Source: Clostridia bacterium
GTDB lineage: Bacteria > Bacillota > DAOUPZ01
Assembly (NCBI GenBank): GCA_030625885.1
Contig: DAOUPZ010000010.1
Location: 29,812-93,811, forward strand
Direction of reading: 5' to 3'
DNA: 64,000 nt
Of this stretch, positions 1 to 23,257 are shown piece by piece. The notes beneath the pieces were generated by a model. It was not told the DNA's origin. It worked only from the letters and a program-made list of their open reading frames with translations, and did no database searches. A program made the position numbers and the translations under genes. Numbering within the stretch: position 1 is the first letter of the stretch; every line of letters begins with the position of its first letter.

Positions 1-2
1 AA

Positions 3-146
3 GAACCTTCAAATGAAGAATTTTCTCAAAATGTAAAAGCTTTTATTGCTACATTGGAAAGTATAAGTGCAATAGAAAAGCTTTCTGATAACAGCTATAT
101 TGTGTATGATAGCGGAAGTATAGGAGGTGTGTCATGGTTAATATAA
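3..146 (+). CDS. 3' end of an upstream gene in the AT-rich island (frame 3, open from the window edge, stop TAA at 144-146). It overlaps the next start by 13 nt.
   Basis: Frame 3 is open from position 3 to the TAA at 144-146 (…EPSNEEFSQNVKAFIATLESISAIEKLSDNSYIVYDSGSIGGVSWLI*). GGAGG at 123-127 serves the ATG at 134. Composition matches the island. Confidence 0.4.
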   Translation, partial: EPSNEEFSQNVKAFIATLESISAIEKLSDNSYIVYDSGSIGGVSWLI

Positions 147-3100
147 CAACTATAGATGAAAAGATATATAATATTTTATTGAAATATATAAAGGGAAGGT
201 ATCTAGGAGATACTCTTTTTTGTTGTATATCAGGCTGCAATAATAGGGTGATAAAGTATATAAAAGACAATTTATCAATACTTCAAAGTATAGAGAAAGA
301 ATATCATATCATGCCTATTTTTGAAGAAAAAACCAATTTTTCGTTTAATGAAATTGTGAGAATAAGAAATGATAAGGATATTAAGAAAATAATTATTTTT
401 ACAAATGGAAGTATAAGTAATATAGATTCACTTAAGGATTTTGCCCAAGTTGACATTAAAAAAATTCCATTTATGGATTTATGGGGTATTATTCAAGAAG
501 AGTGTGAAATTTATTGGAATGAAAATGATAAGTATAATGCGATTGAAAAATTTTTAAAGGATTTAACAGATATAATACAGCCTGAAATATATAATTTAAT
601 AGAGTATTTAGAGAAAGTAAATAAAGATAGTGTAATATATGATGATTTAATTTTAGCATTGAATACAGATTTGTATATGTTTAATATCTGGGCATCTTCA
701 TGTAATACGGTGTTACGAAAAAGCAAATTACAGACTATATATCATAATTCTGATCCTATTCAAATTCATAAGAAGATAACATCACCAAAAGATATCGAAA
801 AAATACAAAAGAGCAAAGATATTGACAAAGCCATACGAGGAAGATTCGGCAATATACGAAAGCAAAAAACAATACTAAGAGAGATGTTTTATGAGCGAAA
901 ATATAGCCAAGCATACAGAGAAATTTATTATGAAATTATTGAAAATATTCTTAAAGGAAGTGGAAAAAAGAAGAAAAGGAAAACTCATGAAGAAGAGGAT
1001 TCTTATAGTTACACTAATATATATAGTCTAGCATTAGGTGCATTAGCAGATTTAGACAATGATGTCACAGTAAGTGTTGATGAAATTAAAAGAGTTACAA
1101 GTTTTAATGATATAGATTTTGAGAATGATGCTGAAGAAGATTATCATTATAAGGTTGATATACCGTATTACTCAAATGAACAAAGTAATAATGAAGATAT
1201 ATTCGTAAATTTGGAAGATGCTAAAGTGAAGTGGAGTCAGTTTCAAAATAACTTTGCAGATAAAGATTATAGAGAAGATATTGTAGAATTATGTGATAAT
1301 TTAAATATACATAATAAAGATAAAATAATTTTAAAAAATAAGTTGGAAAGGTATCTTAATGCTAGAGATTATTTTATAAAACAAAACAATAATCCAATTA
1401 ACCTCAATGGTCTATTAAATAATTCCATAAAGTATGTAACATCTTTTTTCGAACTAATAAAAGAATTATATAATTTTAGACAAGCTACAATAAAAAATAT
1501 TTCTATGAATGGTTTAATTAATAAACTTGTTAACATTGATATCAAAATAAAAAATAATGAAATATATGTACCATTCTATAGTCCATTATTAATATTTCAT
1601 TTGCATAATATGAGAAGTAGATATGAAAAATGTTTATCAATTATTAATAAAATGAATACATATAGAGTTGAGATATTAGAACAAATAAATACTAAAATTT
1701 TAAATGAATATATAGTTTATGATAATAAAACCTATTTATTATCTCAAGATAATAGTAAATTTCCTTATTACATTAAATATATATGTGAAGAATATGTAGA
1801 TAGTATTATTACAATTAATTTTAATGTTATTTCACCATATATAATTAAATATATTAAGAAATATCCTTATAAAAATATAATTAAATTATGTCTAATAGGT
1901 GAAGTAGATTTAAAATCATTAAAAAATACCCTGTTAAAAATATTAGAAAAGATAGATTATTCAAACTTAACACGTTTTAGGCTTAAAATTATTACAAAAT
2001 CACCCAATGATGTTAGAGAAGTTCTTATTTCATTGTTTGAACAAAAAGAAAGCTTAAATAAAAAAATTGAATGTACTATAGAAAGGATGAAGTTAAATAT
2101 TAATCTAGAAAAATATGTGGAGAATTTAATTATTGAAAATGATATAACACTATTTTTGGATAGCAGTATAATGTATTTAAAAACACGTTTTAATAAAAAG
2201 AATGATAGTTATATTGAGAGGGTGGTTAGCTATAGAGATATATCTAGTGAAATTAATAGTATTTCTTATGTTTTAGAAGGTAAAAAAGACAGTATGCCTA
2301 TTATACCTAATGTTATAAATGTATTACAGAACTCTATTGAAAATGAAAACTTACAGAATGGAGAACTAGATAAATATAACTTAAATAATAATTTGATTTC
2401 TTGTATAAATAAGACTTTAAGTGATCTGAAGAATGAAGATAAAGAAGTTATACTTCTTTCAAGTGATAGCAAAATAGATGAACAAATTTTAGATAATCGA
2501 AATCTTAGTGAAATTGACGAGGCTGTCAATAAAAATGACAAAATAAAAGTGTTGACATTTTGTAAATGCACTAAAAATAAAGATGAATATACATTTAAAG
2601 AAAGCAATCATTACATTGAGTTTAATGCAAGTAATTTGTTAGATAGTTTTTTAATTGATAGTAAGCTGGGTTTTTCTTTTATGGACATAGATTTTGAAGA
2701 TATAATTATACGTATGTCATATGGAAATTTTCCACAAGCAATTGATATAGCCTATTATTTTATTAAAGAGTATGATGATGAAATCAGTAAAAAGATTGAA
2801 ATTGAAGTAGAATGTAAAAAAATGTTTGATACATTTATTAAAGTATCTATTAAACCTGAGTTATTTTTAGATAATTATAACAAAGAAAATTTTGTTAAAC
2901 TATTGTTAAGGAGTGCTAAAACAGAGGAAGATGTAGTTTTTATATATTCATTTGAAAATATTTATAATGATATTAAAATTAATTATATAGGAAATATAGA
3001 TTATAAAGATAAATCAAATATTACTAAAATATCTTCAATTAATAGAAATACAGTGTATAGAATATTAAAAATTTTAGGTGAAGAAGCTATTTCTGAACAA

Positions 3101-3262
3101 GCAATAAATAATTTTTCAGAAATGCTCAAAGTTAATAATTTTAGTATTAGCAATTTACCAATGTTACAAATATTAATTTCAAAATATAACCACAATTATA
3201 ATAACATGAAATATTTATATGAGAATATAGGTGCCGTGATTAAAAATATGGAGGTGAAATAA
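134..3262 (+). CDS. Large hypothetical protein (1042 aa), N/K/I-rich, with no recognisable catalytic motif. It is the first complete gene of the island operon.
   Basis: Uninterrupted 3.1-kb ORF, RBS GGAGG 7 nt upstream. Its stop TAA is directly followed by the ATG of the next gene (taaATG). No Walker or other known motif found by eye. Confidence 0.7.
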   Translation: MVNITTIDEKIYNILLKYIKGRYLGDTLFCCISGCNNRVIKYIKDNLSILQSIEKEYHIMPIFEEKTNFSFNEIVRIRNDKDIKKIIIFTNGSISNIDSLKDFAQVDIKKIPFMDLWGIIQEECEIYWNENDKYNAIEKFLKDLTDIIQPEIYNLIEYLEKVNKDSVIYDDLILALNTDLYMFNIWASSCNTVLRKSKLQTIYHNSDPIQIHKKITSPKDIEKIQKSKDIDKAIRGRFGNIRKQKTILREMFYERKYSQAYREIYYEIIENILKGSGKKKKRKTHEEEDSYSYTNIYSLALGALADLDNDVTVSVDEIKRVTSFNDIDFENDAEEDYHYKVDIPYYSNEQSNNEDIFVNLEDAKVKWSQFQNNFADKDYREDIVELCDNLNIHNKDKIILKNKLERYLNARDYFIKQNNNPINLNGLLNNSIKYVTSFFELIKELYNFRQATIKNISMNGLINKLVNIDIKIKNNEIYVPFYSPLLIFHLHNMRSRYEKCLSIINKMNTYRVEILEQINTKILNEYIVYDNKTYLLSQDNSKFPYYIKYICEEYVDSIITINFNVISPYIIKYIKKYPYKNIIKLCLIGEVDLKSLKNTLLKILEKIDYSNLTRFRLKIITKSPNDVREVLISLFEQKESLNKKIECTIERMKLNINLEKYVENLIIENDITLFLDSSIMYLKTRFNKKNDSYIERVVSYRDISSEINSISYVLEGKKDSMPIIPNVINVLQNSIENENLQNGELDKYNLNNNLISCINKTLSDLKNEDKEVILLSSDSKIDEQILDNRNLSEIDEAVNKNDKIKVLTFCKCTKNKDEYTFKESNHYIEFNASNLLDSFLIDSKLGFSFMDIDFEDIIIRMSYGNFPQAIDIAYYFIKEYDDEISKKIEIEVECKKMFDTFIKVSIKPELFLDNYNKENFVKLLLRSAKTEEDVVFIYSFENIYNDIKINYIGNIDYKDKSNITKISSINRNTVYRILKILGEEAISEQAINNFSEMLKVNNFSISNLPMLQILISKYNHNYNNMKYLYENIGAVIKNMEVK

Positions 3263-4285
3263 ATGAATAATGAAACTGAAAAGAAAAGTAATATAATTTG
3301 TATAAATTCTATTAAAGGTGGAGCTGGAAAGACAACTATTGCATTATCATTAGCATATTCTTTGCTTTCAGAGTTAGAAGTTAAATATGATAGTGATAGA
3401 TTGCAAGGAGAAGATGAGAATGTTACAGAAATACAAGAGCCAAAAGTTTGTTATATTGATTTAGATATATTGGGTACGGGGGCTAAACACATAATTTATG
3501 GAGAAAATTATATTGAAGATGATATAAAGTATTTAAATGATATGAAATCTACCGATAAAGATTTTAAACAATACATAAACTACTTAATAATAGAAGGTAA
3601 AAAATTTTGTGTTGATTGTATTATATTGAATGATGCTCCTGAAGAAAAAAATAAGTTTATTAATAATGCACGTTCACATACATCTACAGTTAATATAAAT
3701 ATGTTTCAAGGTAGGGCAAAAAAATTATTAGCTGAAATAGTTAAAGAAAATATTTATGACTATATTATTATTGACTGTGCTCCAGGTTACGAAGGATTTT
3801 CGCGAAATATATATGATTATTTAAAAAAAGAAATCAAGCTAAGGTATAATCATGTGAGAAATGTATATAATTTATTTATAACCACTTTGGATAAAGCGCA
3901 TGTAATGAATACAATTTCTTTTGTATATAATATTATAACTGCCACTGATAATAACCTAAATATTAAAATAGTTCTAAATGATACTTTGAATTACTTTGAT
4001 AATGAAGGCAAAAAAGAGGAGTTTATTAGTAATGTGATTGATAAATTCTCATTATTAAGTAAGAAAGAGATGGAGGAGTGTGGGGACAACCATAATCCTT
4101 CAATAATTAGTTTTAATATTGAATCTATAGTTGTAAAAAAATATAGTGATATAGCATTAAATATGTTTTTTGGAAATGGCAAACAATTACATGGTACTAG
4201 ACTTTGTGAGAACATAGATGATCGAGAGCTAGTTAAAACATTAAAAATATTATCATTTGGAGGTAATGATATTGTGGATTATTGA
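3263..4285 (+). CDS. ParA/MinD/Soj-type P-loop ATPase (deviant Walker A).
   Basis: N-terminal ICINSIKGGAGKTTIALSLA matches the KGGxGKT deviant Walker A. The hydrophobic YDYIIIDCAPG matches a ParA-type Walker B. Translationally coupled to the flanking genes. Confidence 0.75.
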   Translation: MNNETEKKSNIICINSIKGGAGKTTIALSLAYSLLSELEVKYDSDRLQGEDENVTEIQEPKVCYIDLDILGTGAKHIIYGENYIEDDIKYLNDMKSTDKDFKQYINYLIIEGKKFCVDCIILNDAPEEKNKFINNARSHTSTVNINMFQGRAKKLLAEIVKENIYDYIIIDCAPGYEGFSRNIYDYLKKEIKLRYNHVRNVYNLFITTLDKAHVMNTISFVYNIITATDNNLNIKIVLNDTLNYFDNEGKKEEFISNVIDKFSLLSKKEMEECGDNHNPSIISFNIESIVVKKYSDIALNMFFGNGKQLHGTRLCENIDDRELVKTLKILSFGGNDIVDY

Positions 4286-5963
4286 TGATAATAATATGCA
4301 AAATTTTTTTTCTGAGTGGTACGATAAATCAAATAAGATATTTAGTGATGAATTATCGAATGATATAGAACAAATGAACAAAAACATATTTTTATCACAA
4401 AATATAGATTTGAATTATGCAACTATGCAAAAAAACTTACACATGATTTTTGGTGAAAATACAAATGTAGAAAAACAGGTTTGTTTATTTGATGGTGTAT
4501 TAGAATTTTTACAGCATGTTGTTCAAGTAGATGGAGCTGATAGATTATTTAGTAAACATTTTTATGATATTGAATGGAATATGTTTTTAGAAGCAGATTT
4601 TGAAAAAAGTGAGATGAAAGTATATAGAGATCATTTTGTACATCAAATTAGAAATGCTTATTTAGGATATTACCTAATATGGGAAATAGGATTATATAAA
4701 AATATTGAATATGCAGTTCATAAATATGGTTCAACAGGATTCTCACAATATATAAATATATATAAATCAAAAGAATTAAATTCTGATGATAGAAAAATTT
4801 TTTATCAAAAAGTAATAATGAAAACTTGGTTTTTATCAGCTCTTTTTCATGATATAGGATATCCATTAGCATATCACCAAAGATATTCAGCAAGAATGGA
4901 CAAATATATGCCATATCTTAGAGTTTTGGATAACAGAAGACAGATGGATTTTATAGAACTATCGGCATTATTATCAGATACTTACTTGTTTAAAATGGTT
5001 GATTATGAAGAATTGAAATTAAAATATGAAAGATTTGATCATGGAATGTTGTCAGCAATATGCTTGCTCTTAAACTATTATCATACCGGTGCTATACACA
5101 GATTGTCAAATTCGGATAGATGTTCAATTGAACTAGCTGCTTATGCAATATTTGTTCATACAAGAAATTATTCTATACAAGGAAATTTAGAAAAAAATAT
5201 AAGACCTATTTTTGTTGAAGATCCTATTGCATATCTGCTACGATTATGTGATGATTTACAAGAATGGGCAAGAGTATATTTTATAGTAGGAGAAAATAGT
5301 AATGTTTTAATATGTGATAAATGTAAAAAAACAGTTGAGAAACAGGAAAATAGTGATATATATAGATGTAAATGTGGTAATACCTTCAAGAAAATTACTT
5401 CCATTAATTATAGAAAGATTAATCTAGTTGAAGTATGTAAAAAACTAACAATTGAAGATGATGGTAAAAAAATTATCTTTAAATTGGATTATGATTTGTT
5501 AAAATTAATGGAAGTTATAAAAATAGATGAACAATATGCAAAATATAGGGTAAAAGAACTTTCCAATTTAAAGAAATTATTAACAGATCAAGCGTTATTA
5601 CCAGAAATTGATATTAATTACTTTATAAGTAATAATCATATGGAAATAAAAGTTGAAATATTCTTGAGATATATAGAAAAATATTTTAAAGAAAAATATA
5701 TTAAAATAGCGTCTAAAGATTCAAATAGAATTAAACATGAATTTATGTTAGAAAATCAGAAAGAAATAGAAACATCTATTATTCGCAATTTACACTTGGA
5801 GTGTGATGATAATATAAAAGAATCTCTACGATGTGAGATGGAGAGTATTATTGAATATTTATGCAATAATAAACAAAGAGAACTAATATGCAAAAATCCT
5901 CCATGTGAAAATTATATGGAAAATATATATCTATATACATTAATAGACGGTGTTTGTCAATAA
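4257..5963 (+). CDS. HD-domain (metal-dependent phosphohydrolase or nuclease-like) protein with an internal Cys4 zinc ribbon. Start is uncertain: TTG 4257 or 4272, or ATG 4296.
   Basis: RDHFVHQIRNAYLG (His motif I), LFHDIGYPLAYH (HD motif), FDHGMLSAICL and LLRLCDDLQEW (distal His and Asp). CDKCKK…(x14)…CKCG zinc ribbon. It overlaps the end of the ATPase gene by 29 nt. Confidence 0.6.
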   Translation: MEVMILWIIDDNNMQNFFSEWYDKSNKIFSDELSNDIEQMNKNIFLSQNIDLNYATMQKNLHMIFGENTNVEKQVCLFDGVLEFLQHVVQVDGADRLFSKHFYDIEWNMFLEADFEKSEMKVYRDHFVHQIRNAYLGYYLIWEIGLYKNIEYAVHKYGSTGFSQYINIYKSKELNSDDRKIFYQKVIMKTWFLSALFHDIGYPLAYHQRYSARMDKYMPYLRVLDNRRQMDFIELSALLSDTYLFKMVDYEELKLKYERFDHGMLSAICLLLNYYHTGAIHRLSNSDRCSIELAAYAIFVHTRNYSIQGNLEKNIRPIFVEDPIAYLLRLCDDLQEWARVYFIVGENSNVLICDKCKKTVEKQENSDIYRCKCGNTFKKITSINYRKINLVEVCKKLTIEDDGKKIIFKLDYDLLKLMEVIKIDEQYAKYRVKELSNLKKLLTDQALLPEIDINYFISNNHMEIKVEIFLRYIEKYFKEKYIKIASKDSNRIKHEFMLENQKEIETSIIRNLHLECDDNIKESLRCEMESIIEYLCNNKQRELICKNPPCENYMENIYLYTLIDGVCQ

Positions 5964-6095
5964 AGTTGTCATAAAAACCTAGAATTTCAGATTAATATTT
6001 TTCGGTATTTGTTGATCAGGTTTTTCCTCAGTTTGTTTTTCAGGATTAAGCCATACTTGATCTTCAAGTGACCAGTCACGAATGCCTTTGACGCT

Positions 6096-6215
6096 CTGTC
6101 AAAGGGACGGGGTTGTTGACAACACCCCTAATTTGGGATAACCTAGATTAGGGGTGTTTTTTATGCCGAGAAAAGCAAGAAACAAAATTGAGAGGCTAAC
6201 AGGTATCAACAGGGT
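6096..6215 (+). repeat. Structured repeat, copy 1: TTGACA, 36-nt perfect hairpin, T6, conserved ATGCCGAGAAAAGCAAGAA, and a GCTAACAGGTATCAACA box.
   Basis: Hairpin is ACACCCCTAATTTGGGATAACCTAGATTAGGGGTGT followed by TTTTTT. The flanking sequence aligns with copy 2 at 9198-9300. Confidence 0.7.
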
Positions 6216-6296
6216 GATTGTTTTAAAAGCAAAACAGCATCTTTTGTGGTATAATTATCCACAAAAGATGCTGTTTTTAGTATAGAGAGGAAGGAT

Positions 6297-6629
6297 ATGA
6301 TGGAAAAAATAAATTTAAGCGCTGCCAATGTGAAAAATGCTAAAAAAAATATCAAGAGGAACATTGATTTGCAAAAACCTTTTACTGTCGTGCTTCAAGG
6401 AAGAAAAGCGCAATCAATAATTAGAAAAATTAATACCTCTTCCCTTAAGGAGGATTTTGTAACCGCAAAAGGGGCATTATTAGATAGTGATTCTGATTTA
6501 AAATTTTATATCGTTGCAGCGATCGGGTTAATTACAATGGTAACTTCATTAGAAGGTTATAGACTATTTGTAAAAACAAATATAGATAATAGTGAGGAAG
6601 TAATAATCATATTTAAGAGAGAGAAATAA
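6297..6629 (+). CDS. Hypothetical small protein (110 aa).
   Basis: ORF with GAGAGGAAGG RBS-like sequence upstream. No motif recognised. Confidence 0.35.
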   Translation: MMEKINLSAANVKNAKKNIKRNIDLQKPFTVVLQGRKAQSIIRKINTSSLKEDFVTAKGALLDSDSDLKFYIVAAIGLITMVTSLEGYRLFVKTNIDNSEEVIIIFKREK

Positions 6630-6794
6630 ATTTTCCTCTTTCCTTCGCTTTTTCTGCAAACCTGTAATGTAAGTTTTTTATTGCGTTACGTATACTTAAA
6701 AAATAAAAGAGGAATACAATTTGTCAATCAGACAAATTAAGGGGTTAACGGGTATCAGCAATCTTGTTCCCCCTGCTAGATTGGAGGAAAACTT

Positions 6795-7079
6795 ATGCGG
6801 GATAATGTTTTAGATGAAATAAGAGAAATTGCTATGAAGTATAATATTCAAAAGGTTATACTGTTTGGCTCTCGTGCAAGGGGAGATTATTTACCTACTA
6901 GCGATTATGATTTTGCAATCATTGCAGAGGATTTATCTGTTTTGGATAAAGCTATTTTTTGTGCCGACGTTGAGGAAATTAACACACTCAAAAAAATTGA
7001 TATTGTATTTGTTGACTCAAATACTAGTAATGATTTGATGAAGAATATCAAGAGGGATGGTGTGATCATATATGAGTAA
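6795..7079 (+). CDS. Nucleotidyltransferase (MNT or MntA-like antitoxin) of an MNT/HEPN pair.
   Basis: LFGSRARGDYLPTSDYDFAI carries the GSxxxG…DxD pol-beta-type nucleotidyltransferase signature. It overlaps the downstream HEPN gene by 8 nt. Confidence 0.8.
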   Translation: MRDNVLDEIREIAMKYNIQKVILFGSRARGDYLPTSDYDFAIIAEDLSVLDKAIFCADVEEINTLKKIDIVFVDSNTSNDLMKNIKRDGVIIYE

Positions 7080-7464
7080 GTTAGAAACAAAATTAAATAA
7101 TTTTACTAATGCATTACAGAGATTAAAAGAAGCCGCAATAGAGCTTGAAAAAGATGATGCGAGTGATGTTGTGCGTGATGGTCTTATTCAAAGATTTGAG
7201 TTTACTTATGAACTTGCATGGAAGACCACAAAGCAATATTTGGAAGAGGTCGGTATTGTAGACAATAATTCTCCAAAAGCTGTTATAAAAGCAGCATATG
7301 CTCAGAATCTTATTTTTAATGAGCAAAACTGGTTACTTATGCTAAATGATAGAAATCTGACTTCTCATGTATATAAGGAAGAAATAGCAGAAGAAATAGC
7401 TGAGAGAATAACCGATTATTATATTAATGAATTTGAGAAATTGCTAAGCAAACTACAAGTATAA
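7072..7464 (+). CDS. HEPN-domain toxin (HepT-like).
   Basis: C-terminal RNLTSHVY fits the Rx4HxY HEPN motif. Size 130 aa. Gene order MNT then HEPN. Confidence 0.8.
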   Translation: MSKLETKLNNFTNALQRLKEAAIELEKDDASDVVRDGLIQRFEFTYELAWKTTKQYLEEVGIVDNNSPKAVIKAAYAQNLIFNEQNWLLMLNDRNLTSHVYKEEIAEEIAERITDYYINEFEKLLSKLQV

Positions 7465-7502
7465 ATAAGTCTGTTACCAGACAAAAACGGAAGGAGACGA
7501 CT

Positions 7503-7955
7503 ATGAAGAAATTAATTGTTTATGTTTCAGTACATCATAACAATACTAAGAAAGTAGCGGAGCGGATGGCAGCTGTTTTAGGTGCGGATTGCCTAGCAGC
7601 TAAAGATGTTGATCATGCGTTGCTTTTGGAATATGATGTGATTGGTTTGGGTTCGGGTATCTTTTTTGGTAGACATCATAATCGTTTGATTCAACTGGTT
7701 AAGGAAGCTGCTGTTTTAAAGGGGAAAAAGGTTTTTGTTTTTTCCACGGCTGGTTTTGAAAAAATAGCGTTTCATAATCACTTAAAACGATTACTTGATA
7801 ATATAGGTGCAGAAATTATAGGTGAATTTATTTGCTCTGGTTGGGATACTTATGGTCCTTTTAAATTAGTAGGTGGTATCAAAAAGAATAGACCGAATAA
7901 TCATGATTTAGAGCGGGCTGTTCAGTTTGCGGAGGAACTTAAAAAGGGAATATAA
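7503..7955 (+). CDS. Flavodoxin-like fold protein.
   Basis: MKKLIVYVSVHHNNTKKVAERMAAVLGA… has the typical flavodoxin N-terminus and a GLGSGIFFG loop. Confidence 0.5.
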   Translation: MKKLIVYVSVHHNNTKKVAERMAAVLGADCLAAKDVDHALLLEYDVIGLGSGIFFGRHHNRLIQLVKEAAVLKGKKVFVFSTAGFEKIAFHNHLKRLLDNIGAEIIGEFICSGWDTYGPFKLVGGIKKNRPNNHDLERAVQFAEELKKGI

Positions 7956-8024
7956 AGAAAGTATGGACTATATTTATGTATTGATAGTTTTTTATTTTAT
8001 TATATACTTTTTAGGGGTTGGGAA

Positions 8025-8070
8025 ACAATTAGGCATATTGTATTCATACAATATGCCTAATTGTTTTTTA
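8025..8070 (+). terminator. Intrinsic terminator after the flavodoxin-like gene.
   Basis: AAACAATTAGGCATATTGTA/TACAATATGCCTAATTGTTT perfect 20-bp stem followed by TTTTAAT. Confidence 0.6.
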
Positions 8071-8238
8071 ATTATATTAAAAATAAACATTGAACTGTTA
8101 TATGTAATGGTATATAATATAATTAAATAAAACATAATATAATATATATGCGGTATAAGCAAAATGAATCGATACAATAAAAGTATATAACAAGACAATT
8201 TATAAAAAATTTTTTAAAATATATAAAGGAGGCTTGGA

Positions 8239-9186
8239 ATGATGAAAGTTTTTGGACCAGTTCCTTCAAGGCGGTTAGGGCAAAGTTTGGGTATTAATAA
8301 TATTCCACCAAAATTTTGTACTTATTCCTGTGCATATTGTCAACTGGGGCACACTAAAAAAGTGCAAATTGAACGTCGTGAATTTTATAAACCAGCGGAG
8401 CTTGTAGCGGAGGTAGAAGAAAAAATAAAAAAAGCGGCAAAAGTAGGTGAGAAAATCGATTACATGACTTTCGTTGCAGATGGTGAACCCACTTTAGATA
8501 TTAATTTAGGTGCGATTATAGACGGTTTAAAACCGCTTGGTATTAAAATAGCCGTGATTAATAATAGTTCACTTATCTGGCGTGAAGATGTCAGAAACGA
8601 CCTTTTGAAAGCAGATTGGGTTTCTCTGAAAGTAGATAGCCTGAGAGAAGAAATATGGCGTAAGATAGATCGTCCTCATCGTGCTTTAAAGCTGGATTCT
8701 ATATTAGAAGGGATTCTGGCGTTTGCGAAAGTTTATAAAGGACAACTGATGACAGAAACGATGCTTGTAAAAGGTATTAACGATGAAGAAGAATATATTA
8801 AGGAAATTGCTGACTTTTTAGCAAAACTCAACCCCAACACATCCTACTTATCTATTCCAATCAGACCACCAGCTGAAGCGTGTATACAAGCGGCAGATGA
8901 AACATTTATCAATCAAGCTTATCAGATCATCAGTGAAAAAGTTAGCAATGTAGAATATCTGATCGGCTACGAAGGTAATGCCTTTGCTTTTACGGGAAAT
9001 GTAAAAGAAGATATCCTCAGTATTACTGCGGTACATCCAATGCGCCAAGATGCGATTGACGACTTTTTAGTTAAGGCAAATGCGACTTGGAATGTTATAA
9101 ATGATTTACTTAAAGAAGAAAAAATTTTCGAAATTAAACACGACAAAAATACTTTTTATATGCGAAATATTGGTTTAAGACGTTAG
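8239..9186 (+). CDS. Radical SAM enzyme.
   Basis: GPVPSRRLGQSLGINNIPPKFCTYSCAYCQLG carries the CxxxCxxC cluster motif immediately after the GPVPSRRLG N-terminus. Confidence 0.8.
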   Translation: MMKVFGPVPSRRLGQSLGINNIPPKFCTYSCAYCQLGHTKKVQIERREFYKPAELVAEVEEKIKKAAKVGEKIDYMTFVADGEPTLDINLGAIIDGLKPLGIKIAVINNSSLIWREDVRNDLLKADWVSLKVDSLREEIWRKIDRPHRALKLDSILEGILAFAKVYKGQLMTETMLVKGINDEEEYIKEIADFLAKLNPNTSYLSIPIRPPAEACIQAADETFINQAYQIISEKVSNVEYLIGYEGNAFAFTGNVKEDILSITAVHPMRQDAIDDFLVKANATWNVINDLLKEEKIFEIKHDKNTFYMRNIGLRR

Positions 9187-9197
9187 ATGCGAACGGG

Positions 9198-9300
9198 ATG
9201 TCAAGGGGGCAGGGTTATTGACAGTATCTCTAATCTAGGATAATCTAGATTAGAGATACTTTTTTATGCCAAGAAAAGCAAGAAGAAAGAGAGGCACAGG
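9198..9300 (+). repeat. Structured repeat, copy 2: TTGACA, 36-nt perfect hairpin, T6, conserved ATGCCAAGAAAAGCAAGAA.
   Basis: Hairpin is GTATCTCTAATCTAGGATAATCTAGATTAGAGATAC followed by TTTTTT. Outer stem bases differ from copy 1 but remain complementary. The inner CTAAT…GGATAA…CTAGATTAG core is conserved. Confidence 0.7.
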
Positions 9301-9304
9301 TAAT

Positions 9305-10033
9305 ATGGTAGTAATTATGATGTGTTTGATAATTATACTATTTGCCAGTGGTATTCAAGGGCTTACCAGTTTTGGATTTGCTATGATCGCAATACCCTTA
9401 TTAACGCTGTTTTTGCCTTTGAAAATTGTAACACCACTGCTTATTATCTATAGTTTGCTGGTTAATGTCATCATTATTTATAAGATAAAAGAATATATAC
9501 AAATTCAGAAAATGGTATATTTGATTATATCCGGGATAATAGGTACGCCTTTGGGGATTTATCTGTTATTAGTAATAGAGGAAGATATATTAAAAGCCGG
9601 TGTGGGAATTGTTATCTTGTTAGCTGCGGGGGCATTATATTATGGGTGTAAGGCAAATATTAAAAATCAAAAACTAGCGAACATCATAACAGGATTATTA
9701 AGTGGCATATTAAATGGTAGTTTAGCAATGAGTGGCCCGCCGGTCATTTTATTTTTGAAAAATGAAGATGTTGAAAAGCAAATTTTTCGAGCAAATCTTG
9801 CGTTCTACTTTGCTATTATTGACCTATTAACCATACCCATATTGATTTATGGAGGATTGATCACACAGGAGGTCTTAAGATATACGTTGTTTTTATTACC
9901 GGGACTTATTATAGGCGCATGGCTTGGAATGTATTTTAGTAATAAGGTGAACAATGAGATATTTAAAAGATTTACTTTATACCTAATAGCTGTTATGGGT
10001 GTTTTATCAATTGTGTCTTCAGTTATTAAATGA
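9305..10033 (+). CDS. TSUP (TauE/SafE) family membrane transporter. The start is probably at the internal Met MVVIMM rather than the MPRKAR of the ORF track.
   Basis: Polytopic membrane protein with duplicated 4-TM halves and GIIGTPLG / SGILNGSLAMSGPP glycine-rich motifs. The first 13 codons of the tracked ORF lie inside the repeat element. Confidence 0.6.
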   Translation: MVVIMMCLIIILFASGIQGLTSFGFAMIAIPLLTLFLPLKIVTPLLIIYSLLVNVIIIYKIKEYIQIQKMVYLIISGIIGTPLGIYLLLVIEEDILKAGVGIVILLAAGALYYGCKANIKNQKLANIITGLLSGILNGSLAMSGPPVILFLKNEDVEKQIFRANLAFYFAIIDLLTIPILIYGGLITQEVLRYTLFLLPGLIIGAWLGMYFSNKVNNEIFKRFTLYLIAVMGVLSIVSSVIK

Positions 10034-10361: not shown

Positions 10362-10482
10362 ATCTCTTATCGAGAGATGGCGGAGGGACTGGCCCAATGA
10401 AGCCCGGCAACCGATCTTTGCACATTTGTAGAGACACGGTGCCAATTCCAGCAGAATACATTTATTCTGACAGATAAGGGGA
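10362..10482 (+). ncRNA. SAM-I (S-box) riboswitch.
   Basis: CTCTTATCGAGAGATGGCGGAGGGACTGGCCCAATGAAGCCCGGCAACC…GGTGCCAATTCCAGCAGA…GATAAGGGGAGG matches the S-box consensus, including the P1 halves CTCTTATC/GATAAG. Confidence 0.85.
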
Positions 10483-19353: not shown

Positions 19354-19803
19354 ATGACTGATTTTACCGATAAAATGGGAAAGACAGGGAAGTCTAACAA
19401 TAAGCAAAAGCAAAATGGTAACAACTCAAGAGACATCAAGTTAAATAACCAACAGAGAAAACAAATGCAGCATGAATTAAAACTATATATGGAAAAATAT
19501 TTTAAACAGAAATTAGGCAAAGGTGTTGATTATACTAAAATAGTAATCTGGGATGATATGCTTATCATTCGAGGAGAGAGTTTTTTAACGGAACCAGAAA
19601 AATACATTGTTCAAACACCTATGGGGCGGGATGTGGTTAAAGCAGCTCGGATGGAGGTCGCTAGACAGCATTCCATAGATAATCTGGCATATTTTGAAAA
19701 AAGGCTAGGTGCTACATGTATTCATCAAGTTTATGATATAGAATCAGAAAAGGATTATTGGATCCATGTGATGGTTTTTGATCGAGTGTTGACAGAAGTA
19801 TAG
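19354..19803 (+). CDS. Hypothetical protein with a K/N/Q-rich N-terminus.
   Basis: 149-aa ORF, RBS GAGAGGATG upstream. Flanked on both sides by the leader-like elements. Confidence 0.5.
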   Translation: MTDFTDKMGKTGKSNNKQKQNGNNSRDIKLNNQQRKQMQHELKLYMEKYFKQKLGKGVDYTKIVIWDDMLIIRGESFLTEPEKYIVQTPMGRDVVKAARMEVARQHSIDNLAYFEKRLGATCIHQVYDIESEKDYWIHVMVFDRVLTEV

Positions 19804-19809
19804 AAAAGG

Positions 19810-19918
19810 GAATATTTTGGTGGTTTTAGGAAAAACCTGAGGGTGGTTCTGAGGAAGACCAATGTTTTTATGACGTACTCTATTCTGAGTGTGTGCATGA
19901 GAATATTGGTCTTTTTTT
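19810..19918 (+). other. Conserved leader-like element B, upstream of the alcohol dehydrogenase gene.
   Basis: Second copy of element A. Terminator-like AAGACCAAT…ATTGGTCTTTTTTT. Confidence 0.6.
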
Positions 19919-19986
19919 GTACTAGAATGATTTCTAAAAGGTTTTAAGGGTCAACAGGCCTTAAAATAAATAAAAAATAGGGGGAA

Positions 19987-21051
19987 TTGAACATGAATCA
20001 AAAAACAATGAAAGCTGCAGTGTATCATGGACCGGGGGATATGAGATTGGATGAGGTGCCGGTACCTCAAATTATTGAACCAGATGATGCTATTGTTCGG
20101 GTAACGACATCGACTATTTGCGGAACTGATATTCACATTGAAGCAGGTGGTATGCCAGAAGTTGAACCTGGACGCGTTATAGGTCATGAATTTGTGGGAG
20201 AAGTTGTAGAAGTGGGTCCAAATGTAAGAAATGCTAAAGTAGGGGATAAAGTAGCTGTTTCTTGTGTCACACAATGTGGAGAATGCTTCTATTGTGTTCG
20301 TGGAGACTATTCCCACTGTACAACTGGAAGCTGGATTTTCGGTTATATGATTGATGGCTGTCAGGCTGAATATGTTCGTGTCCCACATGCTAACATGGGA
20401 TTGCATCAAATTCCGGAAGGGCTAACCGAAGAAGATGTATTATTTGTGGGTGATATCTTATCTACAGGTTATTTTGGCGCAGAAAAAGCAAGAATTCAAC
20501 CTGGTGACACAGTAGCAGTAATGGGTTGTGGTCCTGTTGGAATGTGTGCTATGGCAACAGCAAGATTATGGGGACCTTCACAAATTATTGCTGTGGATAT
20601 GAATCAAGATCGATTGGATATTGCGGTAAAAGAAGGTATTGCAGATATTGCTATTAATCCTGCAAAAGAAAATGCTGCGGAAAAAATTAGAGAATTGACT
20701 CAAGGTCGTGGTGCTGATGTAACAATCGAAGCAGTAGGGGCAAAAGGAACTTATGAGTTAGCGCTAGACGCCGTAAGAGCAGGTGGAAATGTTTCAATTA
20801 TAGGTGTATTTGAAAAACCACAAGAATTACCAATGAATAAATTATGGATTAAAAATATTAATATCAGCATGGGATTGGTTACTGCTAACCGTATTCCAGA
20901 ATTAATTAAACTCATTCAGACTGGAAAAATTAACACCAATTTCTTAATTACACATCGGGCACCACTAAATGATATTCTTAAAGGTTACGATGTTTTTGGC
21001 AATAAGAAAGACAATTGCCTAAAATGGATTGTTACACCTTTTGAAAAATAA
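19987..21051 (+). CDS. Zn-dependent medium-chain alcohol/threonine dehydrogenase family oxidoreductase.
   Basis: CGTDIHI…GHEFVGEVVEVG catalytic Zn site. C-x2-C-x2-C-x7-C structural Zn site. GCGPVG NAD fold. Confidence 0.85.
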   Translation: MNMNQKTMKAAVYHGPGDMRLDEVPVPQIIEPDDAIVRVTTSTICGTDIHIEAGGMPEVEPGRVIGHEFVGEVVEVGPNVRNAKVGDKVAVSCVTQCGECFYCVRGDYSHCTTGSWIFGYMIDGCQAEYVRVPHANMGLHQIPEGLTEEDVLFVGDILSTGYFGAEKARIQPGDTVAVMGCGPVGMCAMATARLWGPSQIIAVDMNQDRLDIAVKEGIADIAINPAKENAAEKIRELTQGRGADVTIEAVGAKGTYELALDAVRAGGNVSIIGVFEKPQELPMNKLWIKNINISMGLVTANRIPELIKLIQTGKINTNFLITHRAPLNDILKGYDVFGNKKDNCLKWIVTPFEK

Positions 21052-21403
21052 ATAATCATATGAGTTATTGTACTTGGGGTTAACACTAGTAATAAATAAC
21101 CTCAAGTACAAGATATAAATGAAAGAAAATATGAATGATTAAAGTTTATTAGTATTCTGTAATTAAGCTTGTGGTAAGTACCCCCAATATTTACCACATG
21201 ATTCATGTTCAAAGAAGATATATAACCAGTGTAGTTACCAGTGTAAACAAGCAAAAACTTTCCTTTATTAAGGGAGGTTTTTTGCTGTATCAAAAAGAAT
21301 GAGATAATAAAGAAAAACAAGATGAATAATAAAAATTACATGTTTTGATGTTGATTAGGTAACTTGCATGATAGGATAAATAACTAAGTTTGGAGAATTA
21401 AAA

Positions 21404-22330
21404 ATGAACTATAAAAAGATATTTACTGATCCCTCAGGGGTATTATTTTTTTCTATAATTTGCTGTTTCTTGTGGGGGAGTGCCTTTCCTGTTTTGAAGA
21501 TTAGTTTTGAAAAAATGGGATTCTTGCCAGAAAACAGTTTGGATAAGATGGCTTTTGCGGGAATGCGTTTTTTGTTAGCATCGATTATAATTTTCTTTTT
21601 TTATAGAATTGTGTTAAAGGGCAGTATTGCTATTCCAAAATCGTTAGGGTGGCAATTGTTGTTGTTAGGGATTTTTCAAACAAGCCTCCAATATTATTTT
21701 TTTTATAATGCATTAGCCTATATAACCGGAATGAAAGGTGCGATTTTAGAGTCGGTTGGTAGTTTTTTTGTTGTAATATTCGCCCATTTTTTGTACAAAA
21801 ATGATCGGATAAATAACAGGAAAGTATGGGGGGTAATATGTGGCTTTGTTGGTATTTTACTTGTTAATTGGGGAAAAGAATTTTCGTGGACATTTTCTAT
21901 TAAAGGAGAAGGTTATCTCATTTTTTCAGGGTTAGTCAGTGCACTGGGAATGTTGTTAGCAAAAGAGCTTTCTAAGCAGATTCATCCATTTTTGCTTACG
22001 GCATGGCAGATGTTTATTGGATCGCTAATTTTGTTATTATTGGGCATGTCTCGAATTGCGGCTGTTATGGTGCAATTTACACCAATAACAGAAATCCTTT
22101 TTATTTATGCAGCACTTCTATCTGCCATTGCTTTTTCCATTTGGCACTTGCTTTTAAAATATAATAAAGCGGGTGAAGTGGTACTTTATCAATTTATGAT
22201 TCCGGTATCAGGAGCATTACTGTCAACAATTTTTATTCCCGGAGAAAAATTGACTTTGTTTATGATATTGGGGTTGATATTTGTAAGTTTAGGAATATTG
22301 ATTGTTAATATACAAATAAAAGAGAAATAA
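21404..22330 (+). CDS. DMT-superfamily (EamA-like) transporter.
   Basis: Ten TM segments arranged as two EamA-like halves. Confidence 0.7.
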   Translation: MNYKKIFTDPSGVLFFSIICCFLWGSAFPVLKISFEKMGFLPENSLDKMAFAGMRFLLASIIIFFFYRIVLKGSIAIPKSLGWQLLLLGIFQTSLQYYFFYNALAYITGMKGAILESVGSFFVVIFAHFLYKNDRINNRKVWGVICGFVGILLVNWGKEFSWTFSIKGEGYLIFSGLVSALGMLLAKELSKQIHPFLLTAWQMFIGSLILLLLGMSRIAAVMVQFTPITEILFIYAALLSAIAFSIWHLLLKYNKAGEVVLYQFMIPVSGALLSTIFIPGEKLTLFMILGLIFVSLGILIVNIQIKEK

Positions 22331-22399
22331 ATATTAATTATAAAAAATATGTATCTATTTTAGATACATATTTTTTTGAAAAATAATTCAAAAAAGATA

Positions 22400-22428
22400 T
22401 TGACAAAACGATTAAATGTAATTATAAT
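22400..22428 (+). promoter_or_regulatory. Consensus sigma-A promoter for the reverse rubrerythrin gene, followed by a Per-box-like palindrome (22437-22451).
   Basis: TTGACA at 22400-22405, 17-nt spacer, TATAAT at 22423-22428. Downstream TTGTAACTATTACAA is a 7-1-7 inverted repeat resembling TTATAATNATTATAA. Confidence 0.55.
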
Positions 22429-22478
22429 AAAATTGTAACTATTACAAATTATTATAAAAAGCTAAAGGAGGATTTACA

Positions 22479-23027
22479 ATGAAAAAATTTGTTTGTTCTG
22501 TTTGTGGTTATGTACATATGGGAGATACTGCGCCAGAAAAATGTCCGCAATGTGGTGTAGCAGCAGATAAGTTTATTGAAAAAGTTGAAGGCGGAGATTT
22601 GAAATGGGCTGATGAACATAAAATTGGTATCGCAAAAGGGTTAGATCCGGAAGTGGTTCAATGTTTAAAAGATAATTTTATGGGTGAATGTACGGAAGTG
22701 GGGATGTACTTGGCAATGGGTCGTCAAGCGGATCGGGAAGGATATCCTGAGGTAGCAGAAGCTTATAAAAAAATTGCTTTTGAAGAGGCAGAACATGCCG
22801 CAAAATTTGCAGAGCTTTTAGGGGAAGTCGTTGCCGCAGATACCAAAACCAATTTACAAATGCGAGTGGATGCAGAACATGGTGCTTGTCAAGGTAAAAA
22901 GGATTTAGCAACAAAAGCAAAAGAACTCGGTTATGATGCTATTCATGATACGGTACACGAAATGTGCAAGGATGAAGCGCGTCATGGCTCCGCATTTGCT
23001 GGAATGTTAAAAAGATATTTTGGCTAG
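22479..23027 (+). CDS. Reverse rubrerythrin (N-terminal rubredoxin-like domain plus ferritin-like diiron domain).
   Basis: CSVCGY…CPQCG rubredoxin motif followed by E…EAEH diiron helices ([20 protein letters not shown]). Confidence 0.8.
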
Positions 23028-23257
23028 AGTAAACATAATAAGGTTAAGAAGTGCTTGTCGAAAATGATAGGCACTTTTTTTATGGGCTAAACAGATTATA
23101 TTTAGTTATGAAACAGAAGGAAGAGAATCATTGATGTTGAAGTTTTAATTATATTACCCTTATTTGGAAATGTATGCTACGTATATATGAGGTTTTAGGA
23201 TGAAAAAATAAAATGAGATATTATAAGCATCAAAGCTAAATATAAAGGGGAAATATA

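Follow-up and report, generated by a model that had tools for sequence, protein, structure and literature searches.

A mobile five-gene operon of Clostridia that credibly joins SspF/SspG relatives to an undescribed trio with a ParA/MinD-type ATPase and an HD protein

Introduction

What does the AT-rich island at the start of a 64,000-nucleotide stretch of a Clostridia contig (GenBank DAOUPZ010000010.1, positions 29,812 to 93,811, hereafter the window) encode, and could it be an immune system? An earlier note on this DNA had described the island as a translationally coupled ORFan operon of three genes that matched no named system. We found that the island holds three complete genes and a fragment of a fourth, the tail of a five-gene operon that is conserved and horizontally mobile. 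The operon credibly encodes a candidate immune system, a new variation on those that restrict DNA, in which relatives of SspF and SspG, two known anti-phage restriction proteins, would be joined to an undescribed trio: a large scaffold protein, a ParA-type ATPase and an HD enzyme.

Composition, gene order and operon boundaries

GC content was 0.205-0.265 in every 1-kb bin of window positions 1-6000, 0.33-0.34 at 6001-10000 and 0.29-0.44 over the rest of the window. The GC profile, proposed beforehand as a check on the island, was therefore not flat, with 1-6000 (20-27% GC) clearly below its flanks (29-44% GC elsewhere). As described, open reading frames at 134-3262, 3263-4285 and 4257-5963 followed the 3' end of an upstream gene (to 146), all on the + strand. 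However, these are not a three-gene unit with a separate gene in front, as the window start cuts the operon; a longer contig covering the window (L001; window position = L001 position - 4673) showed two further operon genes upstream, making five coupled genes, g1 to g5. The features are listed below, in window coordinates unless L001 is named.

L001 1652-3304, upstream of the window: g1, SspF/DndF-type P-loop kinase, 550 aa, by its PADLOC SspF match
L001 3305-4819, + strand: g2, SspG/MAD7-like protein, 504 aa, last 48 codons at window 1-146, by a C-terminal MAD7/SspG match
122-128, + strand: Shine-Dalgarno sequence of g3, GGAGGTG, read in the sequence inside the 3' end of g2
134-3262, + strand: g3, 1042-aa core protein, made up of an N-terminal region (about residues 1-400) and the C-terminal ~650 aa
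3250-3256, + strand: Shine-Dalgarno sequence of g4, GGAGGTG, read in the sequence inside the 3' end of g3
3263-4285, + strand: g4, predicted ParA/MinD-class (deviant Walker A) ATPase, 340 aa, by Pfam AAA_31 and motifs
4257-5963, + strand: g5, predicted HD-superfamily phosphohydrolase, 568 aa, start ambiguous (4257, 4266 or 4272)
6121-6165, + strand: intrinsic terminator, 17-bp stem with 7 G-C pairs (stem region 6121-6158) and T-run

The g2 stop codon (144-146) lies beyond the g3 ATG at 134, giving the 13-nt overlap that had been noted, which is consistent with translational coupling. The junction taaATG was likewise confirmed at 3260-3265, with the g4 ATG directly after the g3 stop. At the third junction an overlap is present, but its length is 14-29 nt and not surely the 29 nt first given, because g5 has three candidate starts (TTG 4257, ATG 4266 and TTG 4272) against a g4 end at 4285. 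ATG 4266 is the start called in public data, yielding 565 aa, and TTG 4272 has the best spacing of the candidates from GGAGG at 4259-4263. The terminator closes the operon about 160 nt past the g5 stop; the reported MNT/HEPN pair follows at 6795-7464 (MNT, PF18765; HEPN-type, PF08780) and adjoins the window copy of the operon. Attachment-site repeats and tRNA integration sites were looked for around the island, and a conserved sixth small gene 5' of g1; none was found.

Distribution and genomic context

The ORFan description did not survive the searches. Relatives of g5 numbered more than 150 and occurred in 277 genome loci, and 31 of the 80 species-level genome loci retrieved, mostly from gut Clostridia plus Calditrichales, carried all five genes with their order unchanged. 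The neighborhoods of homologues, which the earlier note had suggested inspecting, thus show the same genes in the same order in dozens of genomes. Orthology of all five genes with order kept was established for the window operon (L001), L002, L003/L004, L005 and L006/L007, and the set was also present in two metagenome loci, L091 and L092.

A three-gene form, consisting of a homologue of the g3 C-terminus (X), g4 and a long g5, occurred in 19 further loci. X matched g3 residues 397-1044 (hhalign probability 99.3%), and D676, Y681, S777 and P484 were conserved in both forms. Because the trio of g3 C-terminus, g4 and g5 occurs alone in these 19 loci, it is taken as the core, and computation shows g3, g4 and g5 as an older, separable trio. 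The five-gene form was found in Bacillota and Calditrichales and the three-gene form in Treponema and Rikenellaceae. We also asked if g1 or g2 could be the counterpart of X, or of the extension at the C-terminus of the long g5, and rejected this, as hhalign probabilities were below 1%.

Operon GC was below flank GC, with median differences of 0.058 and 0.061. Integrase or transposase genes adjoin the operon in L001, L002, L005 and L008. In L091 and L092 the adjoining genes are Tn7-like (TnsA/TnsB/TniQ), and the cargo there is of NACHT, DUF87 and Mrr type; many loci lack mobility genes in the vicinity of the operon. The proposal of a horizontally acquired, compositionally deviant and translationally coupled operon in mobile or defence-type contexts was supported. 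A plasmid, phage or viral origin was rejected, as no relatives were found on 72,556 plasmids or in 50,697 phage genomes, and IMG/VR held one distant match. A TIR-CHAT-TPR gene adjoins the operon in L002.

The upstream genes g1 and g2

The g1 protein of the window operon matched PADLOC SspF models with an E of 9e-23, and SspF was matched in all five orthologues tested (E 1e-13 to 1e-22) over roughly the first 230-310 residues, varying by orthologue. Two orthologues also matched PADLOC DndF (E 2.4e-12 and 3e-6). Across 34 g1 sequences, the Walker A motif GxAGDGK[ST], N123 at the Walker B position and the cysteines C181, C184 and C190 were invariant, as was D91-F92-S93 where DndF has 'ND'; position 90 was Asn in 6 of the 34, the commonest residues there being Met (9), Asn (6) and Gln (5). 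Computation shows g1, judged by these matches and residues, to be a derived P-loop kinase of the F type. A g1 profile search aimed at bona fide SspF/SspG/SspH loci returned 16 matches, all of them orthologues.

The C-terminus of the window operon's g2 matched NCBIfam MAD7 at an E of 1.7e-8, below the curated cutoff; across the g2 sequences, E values for this domain ran from 7e-9 to 2e-6, with scores of 13-35 bits against a 410-bit cutoff. PADLOC SspG matched two of five g2 orthologues (3.5e-11 and 5.4e-10), over the C-terminal ~150 residues only, and did not match g2 of the window operon. These comparisons show computationally that g2 probably carries a G-type C-terminal domain. The link from g2 to DndG, a triple winged-helix subunit, is indirect: g2 matches MAD7, and Mad7 matches DndG 7EXX according to the MADS authors. 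A 20-sequence g2 profile aimed at 7EXX matched nothing in the PDB, DndG chains included.

The g3, g4 and g5 proteins

The N-terminal ~1-400 residues of g3, of alpha/beta and helical character, are confined to the five-gene form, while the C-terminal ~650 aa are common to both forms. A methyltransferase-like Rossmann domain at ~567-800, in which D670, D676 and Y681 are invariant, was the sole domain found; no restriction-endonuclease or HerA/FtsK domain was present, nor any conserved instance of GxxxxGK[ST]. The fold is of the Rossmann type expected of class I SAM-dependent methyltransferases, but the glycine-rich SAM loop after strand 1 is missing (position 589 was Asp in 22 and Gly in 11 of 35 orthologues). 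No methyltransferase profile in Pfam or NCBIfam matched g3, five orthologues had no match of any kind in Pfam, NCBIfam or PADLOC, a g3 profile matched nothing in the PDB, and the Foldseek matches in the PDB, to methyltransferase/GRAS structures, were all weak (E >= 0.015). A word-indexed search with the 1042-aa protein found one homologue, and an exhaustive profile search found 30 sequences, all same-length orthologues. The g3 protein was the fastest evolving, with 17-26% identity where g5 keeps 33-41%, as expected for an invader-facing subunit.

The KGGAGKT of the reported ATPase motif was confirmed in g4, which matched Pfam AAA_31 at an E of 8e-10 (above the curated cutoff) and also CbiA and ParA; NCBIfam ParA_partition reached 27.6 bits against a 180-bit cutoff, and PADLOC gave only P-loop noise, to mad8 and, in a type B copy, to PDC-M28B. 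In all 34 type A orthologues S16, K18, G19, G20, K23, D66, D68, G71, D171, P174 and T208 were invariant, with G22, T72 and C172 kept in 33; in 20 type B orthologues K-GG-G-K, DxD and the Walker B Asp were likewise invariant. By its motifs, g4 is a catalytically intact ParA/MinD ATPase, and the signature lysine of KGGxGK[ST], the DxD switch and the Walker B Asp together imply an ATP-sandwich dimer.

The g5 protein is laid out as an HD domain (~90-340), a Cys4 zinc ribbon (C353, C356, C371, C373), a beta domain and a C-terminal helical domain. As had been read from the third open reading frame, the HD motifs and the four cysteines are there, and they were invariant in 73 homologues. With the H...HD...H...H...D metal-binding motifs and the HD fold of the superfamily, computation shows g5 to be an intact HD phosphohydrolase of binuclear type with a zinc ribbon. 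It matched nothing in Pfam, NCBIfam or PADLOC, and is a new family without a Pfam model.

Proposed function and alternative explanations

We infer a defence function for the operon. We consider the chances about even that the five-gene operon, with the island as its distal portion, is a self-contained system against phages or plasmids that belongs to the F-G-H type (DndFGH/SspFGH) and has a different effector end. In such a system, the F-like kinase g1 would be the nucleotide sensor or switch and the G-like g2 the DNA-binding subunit. Both may dock on the N-terminal ~400 residues of g3, thereby controlling the core; that region of g3 occurs solely in operons with F and G. The ParA-type g4 would dimerize with ATP on DNA, forming a DNA-bound, ATP-gated platform in the role of HerA/FtsK in DndH and SspH, and g5 could be the nuclease that nicks or degrades invading DNA, a task that falls to the restriction-endonuclease domain in DndH. 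The conserved D670/D676/Y681 pocket of the fast-evolving g3 would read a feature of the DNA or of the invader. Since the operon lacks a modification enzyme, sensing, and not a self mark, would serve for discrimination.

Other explanations assign different tasks to the same proteins. The methyltransferase-like domain of g3 and X might be active in a non-canonical way and mark host DNA, with F/G, ParA and HD proteins restricting unmarked DNA, which would make the operon a self-contained modification-restriction system. This appears unlikely, as the SAM loop is missing, the profile and Foldseek results offer no firm methyltransferase match, and DndH has a comparable inactive domain. We regard as similarly improbable a nucleotide-directed abortive or starvation response, in which the HD protein would hydrolyze nucleotides (dNTPs, a signalling nucleotide or a phage-modified nucleotide) and not DNA, with the F-type kinase acting on the same pool. 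Alternatively, the operon might maintain or partition a mobile element (an integrative element or a Tn7-like transposon), its ATPase serving in segregation or target choice and not in immunity, which would suit the ParA/MinD class of g4 and the integrase, transposase or Tn7 genes adjoining the operon in six contexts. However, no ParB or centromere-binding partner was seen among the called neighbors in ten contexts, the plasmid and phage collections held no relatives and IMG/VR one distant match, and the F/G-type partners are restriction components. Moreover, many loci lack nearby mobility genes, so the operon behaves as cargo, and we consider this explanation very improbable.

A bolder reading can be put forward tentatively, and we think it rather less probable than not: the trio of g3 C-terminus or X, ParA and HD protein could be a previously unrecognized autonomous immune module. 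Its large subunit would then be an active, non-canonical DNA-modifying or -reading enzyme with the D670/D676/Y681 pocket, and the ParA-type ATPase, a kind of protein familiar from DNA segregation, the DNA-surveillance motor of a nuclease. By the evidence of the five-gene form, F/G sensors would have been swapped between unrelated effectors, HerA/REase in Dnd and Ssp and ParA/HD here.

Should a defence role be borne out, the operon would be the first case of immunity founded on a ParA/MinD-type ATPase that is coupled to an HD enzyme, and the phosphorothioate-associated F and G subunits would be a portable sensor module able to drive a completely different effector. It would then bear directly on how machines of the DndFGH/SspFGH type tell foreign from self DNA without modification genes. 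For biochemistry, a minimal version is available in the three-gene form. Gut Lachnospiraceae commonly carry the system, and few defence systems have been tested in these bacteria, making it relevant to phage-microbiome work.

Comparison with known systems

The claim that the island matched no named system held for g3 to g5 in PADLOC 2023, NCBIfam 2026 and Pfam 2025, but not for g1 and g2, which matched SspF, DndF, SspG and MAD7. Among PADLOC v2 models, Gabija, Septu, PARIS, Wadjet, Zorya, BREX, Lamassu, Menshen and others had no match at E <= 0.1 for g3 or g5 of any orthologue. A literature search of incomplete coverage, and hence a weak negative, found no described ParA+HD defence system and no 'SspFGH-like' or 'DndFGH-like' system.

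Both the ATPase and the HD protein have well-known relatives. Like ParA, MinD and Soj, g4 has the signature lysine, DxD switch and Walker B Asp, but no partner of the ParB, MinE or centromere kind accompanies it, it does not occur on plasmids, and its gene always precedes that of the HD protein, whose start overlaps or is closely spaced. With the Cas3 HD domain, YhaM, class I PDEs and PPX/GppA, g5 shares the five-motif signature and HD fold, to which it adds the Cys4 ribbon, beta domain and helical C-terminal domain.

MADS, the methylation-associated defence system of P. aeruginosa SMC4386, contains, by its authors' account, the DndG-like Mad7 (matching 7EXX) and the HerA-like Mad8, preceded by the protein kinase Mad6 (bioRxiv 10.1101/2023.03.30.534895), and in its authors' model MAD6, MAD7 and MAD8 are all mandatory. 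The C-terminal ~150 residues of g2 match the MAD7 model. In contrast, MAD6 was unmatched, the MAD8 matches were P-loop noise on g1 and g4 (E ~0.01-0.04), and there is no N6-methylase, specificity subunit, OLD/Toprim or DUF4276 protein, methylase and specificity subunit being absent from operon and flanks.

SspFGH of Vibrio anguillarum FF-93 is a restriction module dependent on single-strand phosphorothioate modification (PMC8092258). Our operon resembles it in having a first gene for a Walker A protein that matches SspF profiles in all orthologues, a second whose C-terminal domain matches SspG profiles in two of five orthologues, and a large protein at third position, in tightly coupled, co-directional genes. 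It differs in that g3 has neither SspH similarity nor an FtsK-like ATPase, in the ParA-type ATPase and HD/zinc-ribbon genes that are always present as extras, and in hosts that are mostly gut Clostridia and not Proteobacteria. No PAPS-reductase, DUF4007 or cysteine-desulfurase type gene (sspBCD/iscS) was among the called neighbors within 10 kb in ten annotated contexts.

The published hallmarks of DndF, from DndFGH (DptFGH), are an intact Walker A, a Walker B with Asn, a strand 2 that ends in ND and an optional Zn insert (PMC10853773). The g1 protein has a canonical Walker A, Asn where Walker B would have Asp, and cysteines inserted in the lid; it is only partly alike at 'ND', with an invariant Asp-Phe-Ser and Asn in a minority of sequences. 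DndH carries an inactive DAM methyltransferase domain (PMC10853773), similar to g3, a large third subunit with a methyltransferase-like Rossmann domain lacking the SAM loop. However, g3 is shorter (1042 aa against about 1700) and could not be related to DndH by sequence, the ATPase is a polypeptide of its own, of the ParA/MinD class, and not a C-terminal HerA/FtsK domain, and the putative nuclease is a separate HD protein and not a PD-(D/E)xK domain. In both cases, the ATPase is borrowed from DNA-segregation machinery. No modification genes were found with our operon, which in this respect resembles the stand-alone DndFGH that Rakesh, Aravind and Krishnan (PMC10853773) proposed to discriminate by sensing and not by a self mark. 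Since g1 and g2 match SspF, DndF, SspG and MAD7, the operon is best placed within the F/G-type restriction family, as a probable variant whose effector trio is new, and not as a system unrelated to everything described.

The AT-rich island and the operon it carries

The operon at the start of the window is best described as a variant of the F/G-type restriction systems (DndFGH, SspFGH and MADS), with an undescribed core trio. The low GC content described in the earlier note was borne out, as GC per kb was 0.205-0.265 over window 1-6000 versus 0.33-0.34 over the following four kb and 0.29-0.44 across the remainder. The open reading frames named there were also present at the coordinates given, all on the + strand.

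Features of the operon in the window
ends 146, +, 3' end of the upstream gene (g2)
134-3262, +, g3, 1042 aa
3263-4285, +, g4, 340 aa
4257-5963, +, g5, 568 aa
122-128, 3250-3256 and 4259-4263, Shine-Dalgarno GGAGG(TG), one per junction, within the 3' end of the preceding gene
6121-6158, intrinsic terminator with a 17-bp stem, closing the operon

The proposed gene coupling held at every junction of the window operon, where neighbouring genes either overlap or abut directly, stop to start; the 29-nt g4/g5 overlap was uncertain, with a range of 14-29 nt, because g5 may begin at TTG 4257, at TTG 4272 or at ATG 4266, the start used in public data. Tight coupling was repeated in the gene calls of other loci, e.g., as 4-nt g2/g3 overlaps. 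Between the g5 stop and the terminator (window 5964-6120) lay ~160 nt of higher-GC non-coding DNA, which may be what is left of a degraded gene or of the junction at which the insertion took place.

The window cuts the operon. L001, a Logan contig encoding the 1042-aa protein, reached 4673 nt further upstream, where a tyrosine-integrase fragment is followed by two additional coupled genes, g1 (550 aa) and g2 (504 aa); the last 48 codons of g2 correspond to window 3-146. A search for a conserved sixth gene upstream of g1 found none. The sole close relative of g3 (56% identity) was encoded in a JGI metagenome locus, L002, with an identical five-gene arrangement and likewise in an AT-rich island (GC 0.27 vs 0.42-0.53).

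Downstream of the island, Pfam confirmed the previously noted overlapping toxin-antitoxin pair, MNT (PF18765/PF01909) and HEPN-type NTase_sub_bind (PF08780), at window 6795-7464. A perfect 19-nt inverted repeat with a 9-nt loop (AAAACAGCATCTTTTGTGG / CCACAAAAGATGCTGTTTT; 6231-6277) could be an operator or attenuator; 20 nt downstream of it lies an ORF of 110 aa (6297-6629) with no Pfam match. Together with the terminator at 6121-6158, this repeat is probably what had been reported as a structured repeat. The strong positive GC skew of the window fits a leading-strand region, and its two riboswitches fit a Bacillota host.

Features downstream of the toxin-antitoxin pair
7503-7955, flavodoxin-like gene, next after the pair
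8239-9186, radical SAM gene, after the flavodoxin-like gene
10364-10480, +, SAM riboswitch, 88.5 bits
56818-56937, +, FMN riboswitch, 109.6 bits

Protein identities

Public records label all of these proteins hypothetical. PADLOC SspF models were matched by g1 in 5/5 orthologues tested (E 1e-13 to 1e-22), two of which also matched DndF (E 2.4e-12 and 3e-6). Across 34 g1 orthologues, the Walker A motif GxAGDGK[ST], an Asn at the Walker B position (hhAAN-G-F), D-F-S and three cysteines were invariant. The C-terminal ~150 residues of g2 matched NCBIfam MAD7 in three orthologues at E 7e-9 to 2e-6 and in a fourth at 0.028, all scores being far below the curated cutoff, and matched PADLOC SspG in two orthologues (E 3.5e-11 and 5.4e-10). 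A direct link between g2 and DndG was looked for and not recovered. Mad7 has been described as homologous to DndG and Mad8 to HerA, while Mad6 was described only as a protein kinase (bioRxiv 10.1101/2023.03.30.534895); going by what its authors note, a module of this kind is present in MADS at least in its G-like and HerA-like parts. The exclusion of a Dnd/Ssp likeness in the earlier note was mistaken, because the two genes cut off by the window edge encode an F-type and a probable G-type subunit.

The g4 protein belongs to the ParA/MinD class of ATPases, with Pfam AAA_31 matched above cutoff, and its signature lysine, P-loop lysine, DxD and Walker B Asp were invariant in 34 five-gene (type A) and 20 three-gene (type B) sequences. 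Residues 10-177 aligned to the NCBIfam "KGGVGR-motif variant AAA ATPase" domain model below cutoff (E 4e-5). This alignment was wider than that from any ParA or MinD model, and hints that g4 may be closer to the little-studied KGGVGR-motif variant group.

Distribution and two forms of the cassette

Contrary to the earlier proposal, the proteins are not ORFans: a word-indexed search gave 153 relatives of g5, all lacking Pfam domains, and g5 occurred at 277 loci among 185,579 species-level genomes. When 80 fetched loci were scanned with HMMs of the five proteins, 31 carried type A, g1-g2-g3-g4-g5, with order and orientation kept, in Lachnospiraceae, Hungatella, Eubacterium, Blautia, Acetatifactor, Kineothrix, Faecalicatena, Clostridiaceae and one Calditrichales genome. 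Type B, found in 19 of the 80 in hosts including Treponema, Rikenellaceae and Christensenella, consisted of another large gene, X, followed by g4 and a longer g5 (730-960 aa). The remaining distant g5-like proteins among the fetched loci were without g4.

All 19 X proteins formed a single family, which aligned to g3 residues 397-1044 in profile-profile comparison (probability 99.3%, E 5e-20). The same comparison ruled out X or the long-g5 extension as g1 or g2, as neither matched. The core is thus the trio of the g3 C-terminal part (or X), g4 and g5. To this core the five-gene form adds three elements that always come together: g1, g2 and a ~400-residue g3 N-terminal region.

Several loci departed from these forms. 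At L036 (8823-17231), from a Rikenellaceae MAG, X lies ~2.8 kb downstream of g4 and the long g5 rather than upstream, making it a rearranged three-gene form. Decaying copies also exist, as g5 was split into two ORFs at L045 (9678-11371) and only g5 fragments were left at L066 (9977-10485; Petralouisia muris). Six Methanobrevibacter contigs (L072, L078, L079, L084, L085 and L089) encoded tandem pairs of distant g5-like HD proteins (750-830 aa) with no ParA-like gene, a separate archaeal branch of the g5 family.

Genomic context and mobility

Horizontal acquisition of a coupled operon, as earlier suggested, was upheld. Operon GC was below that of the flanks in most loci (median difference 0.058 for type A, n=34, and 0.061 for type B, n=21), and the operon sat between unrelated housekeeping genes that differed by genome in some loci and adjoined integrases or transposases in others. 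In two metagenome loci, Tn7-like tnsA/tnsB/tniQ-tnsD directly adjoined it, along with NACHT, DUF87 and Mrr genes. None of the annotated contexts had a methylase or ssp/dnd modification gene next to the operon.

Other cargo was seen nearby. In L002, transposase fragments separate the operon from a gene of >1199 aa with TIR, CHAT and TPR domains 3.7 kb downstream (19597-23141), another conflict-type gene within that island. In L093 (4051-5756) and L094 (4758-6158), type B operons lie inside polysaccharide-biosynthesis loci, with AAA-ATPase_like/PDDEXK_9 or ATPase_2/DUF234 genes ahead of them that are possibly further variable-island cargo.

Interpretation and comparison with known systems

The case for a real, selected and mobile multi-gene system is strong; homology and fold assignments, catalytic-residue conservation, co-occurrence and mobility all came directly from computation. 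Evidence for what the operon does is indirect, and we consider the chances about evenly balanced that it is a stand-alone anti-invader system of F-G-H type. For such a defence role, we infer that g3, in the H position, would keep no more than its reader and scaffold roles, to which a methyltransferase-like domain belongs, while ATPase and nuclease functions would come from the separate ParA-type g4 and HD protein g5. The F and G subunits would dock on the g3 N-terminus, and g4 would serve as a DNA platform.

Were g3 instead an active non-canonical modifier, the operon would be a complete modification-restriction system, which appears unlikely. It is similarly improbable that the HD enzyme acts on nucleotides rather than DNA. 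A mobile-element maintenance module is a very unlikely reading; a search of 72,556 plasmids and 50,697 phage genomes gave no relatives, and IMG/VR yielded only one distant HD match.

No description of the system was found in profile libraries or the searchable literature, in agreement with the earlier view that it matched no named system, and the combination of a ParA-type ATPase, an HD protein and a large partner was rightly called unusual. DndH has a methyltransferase-like domain, as g3 does. Segregation ATPases were repeatedly "captured" in DndH (Rakesh et al., PMC10853773), and on the F-G-H reading that capture would be paralleled here, but with a different ATPase class.
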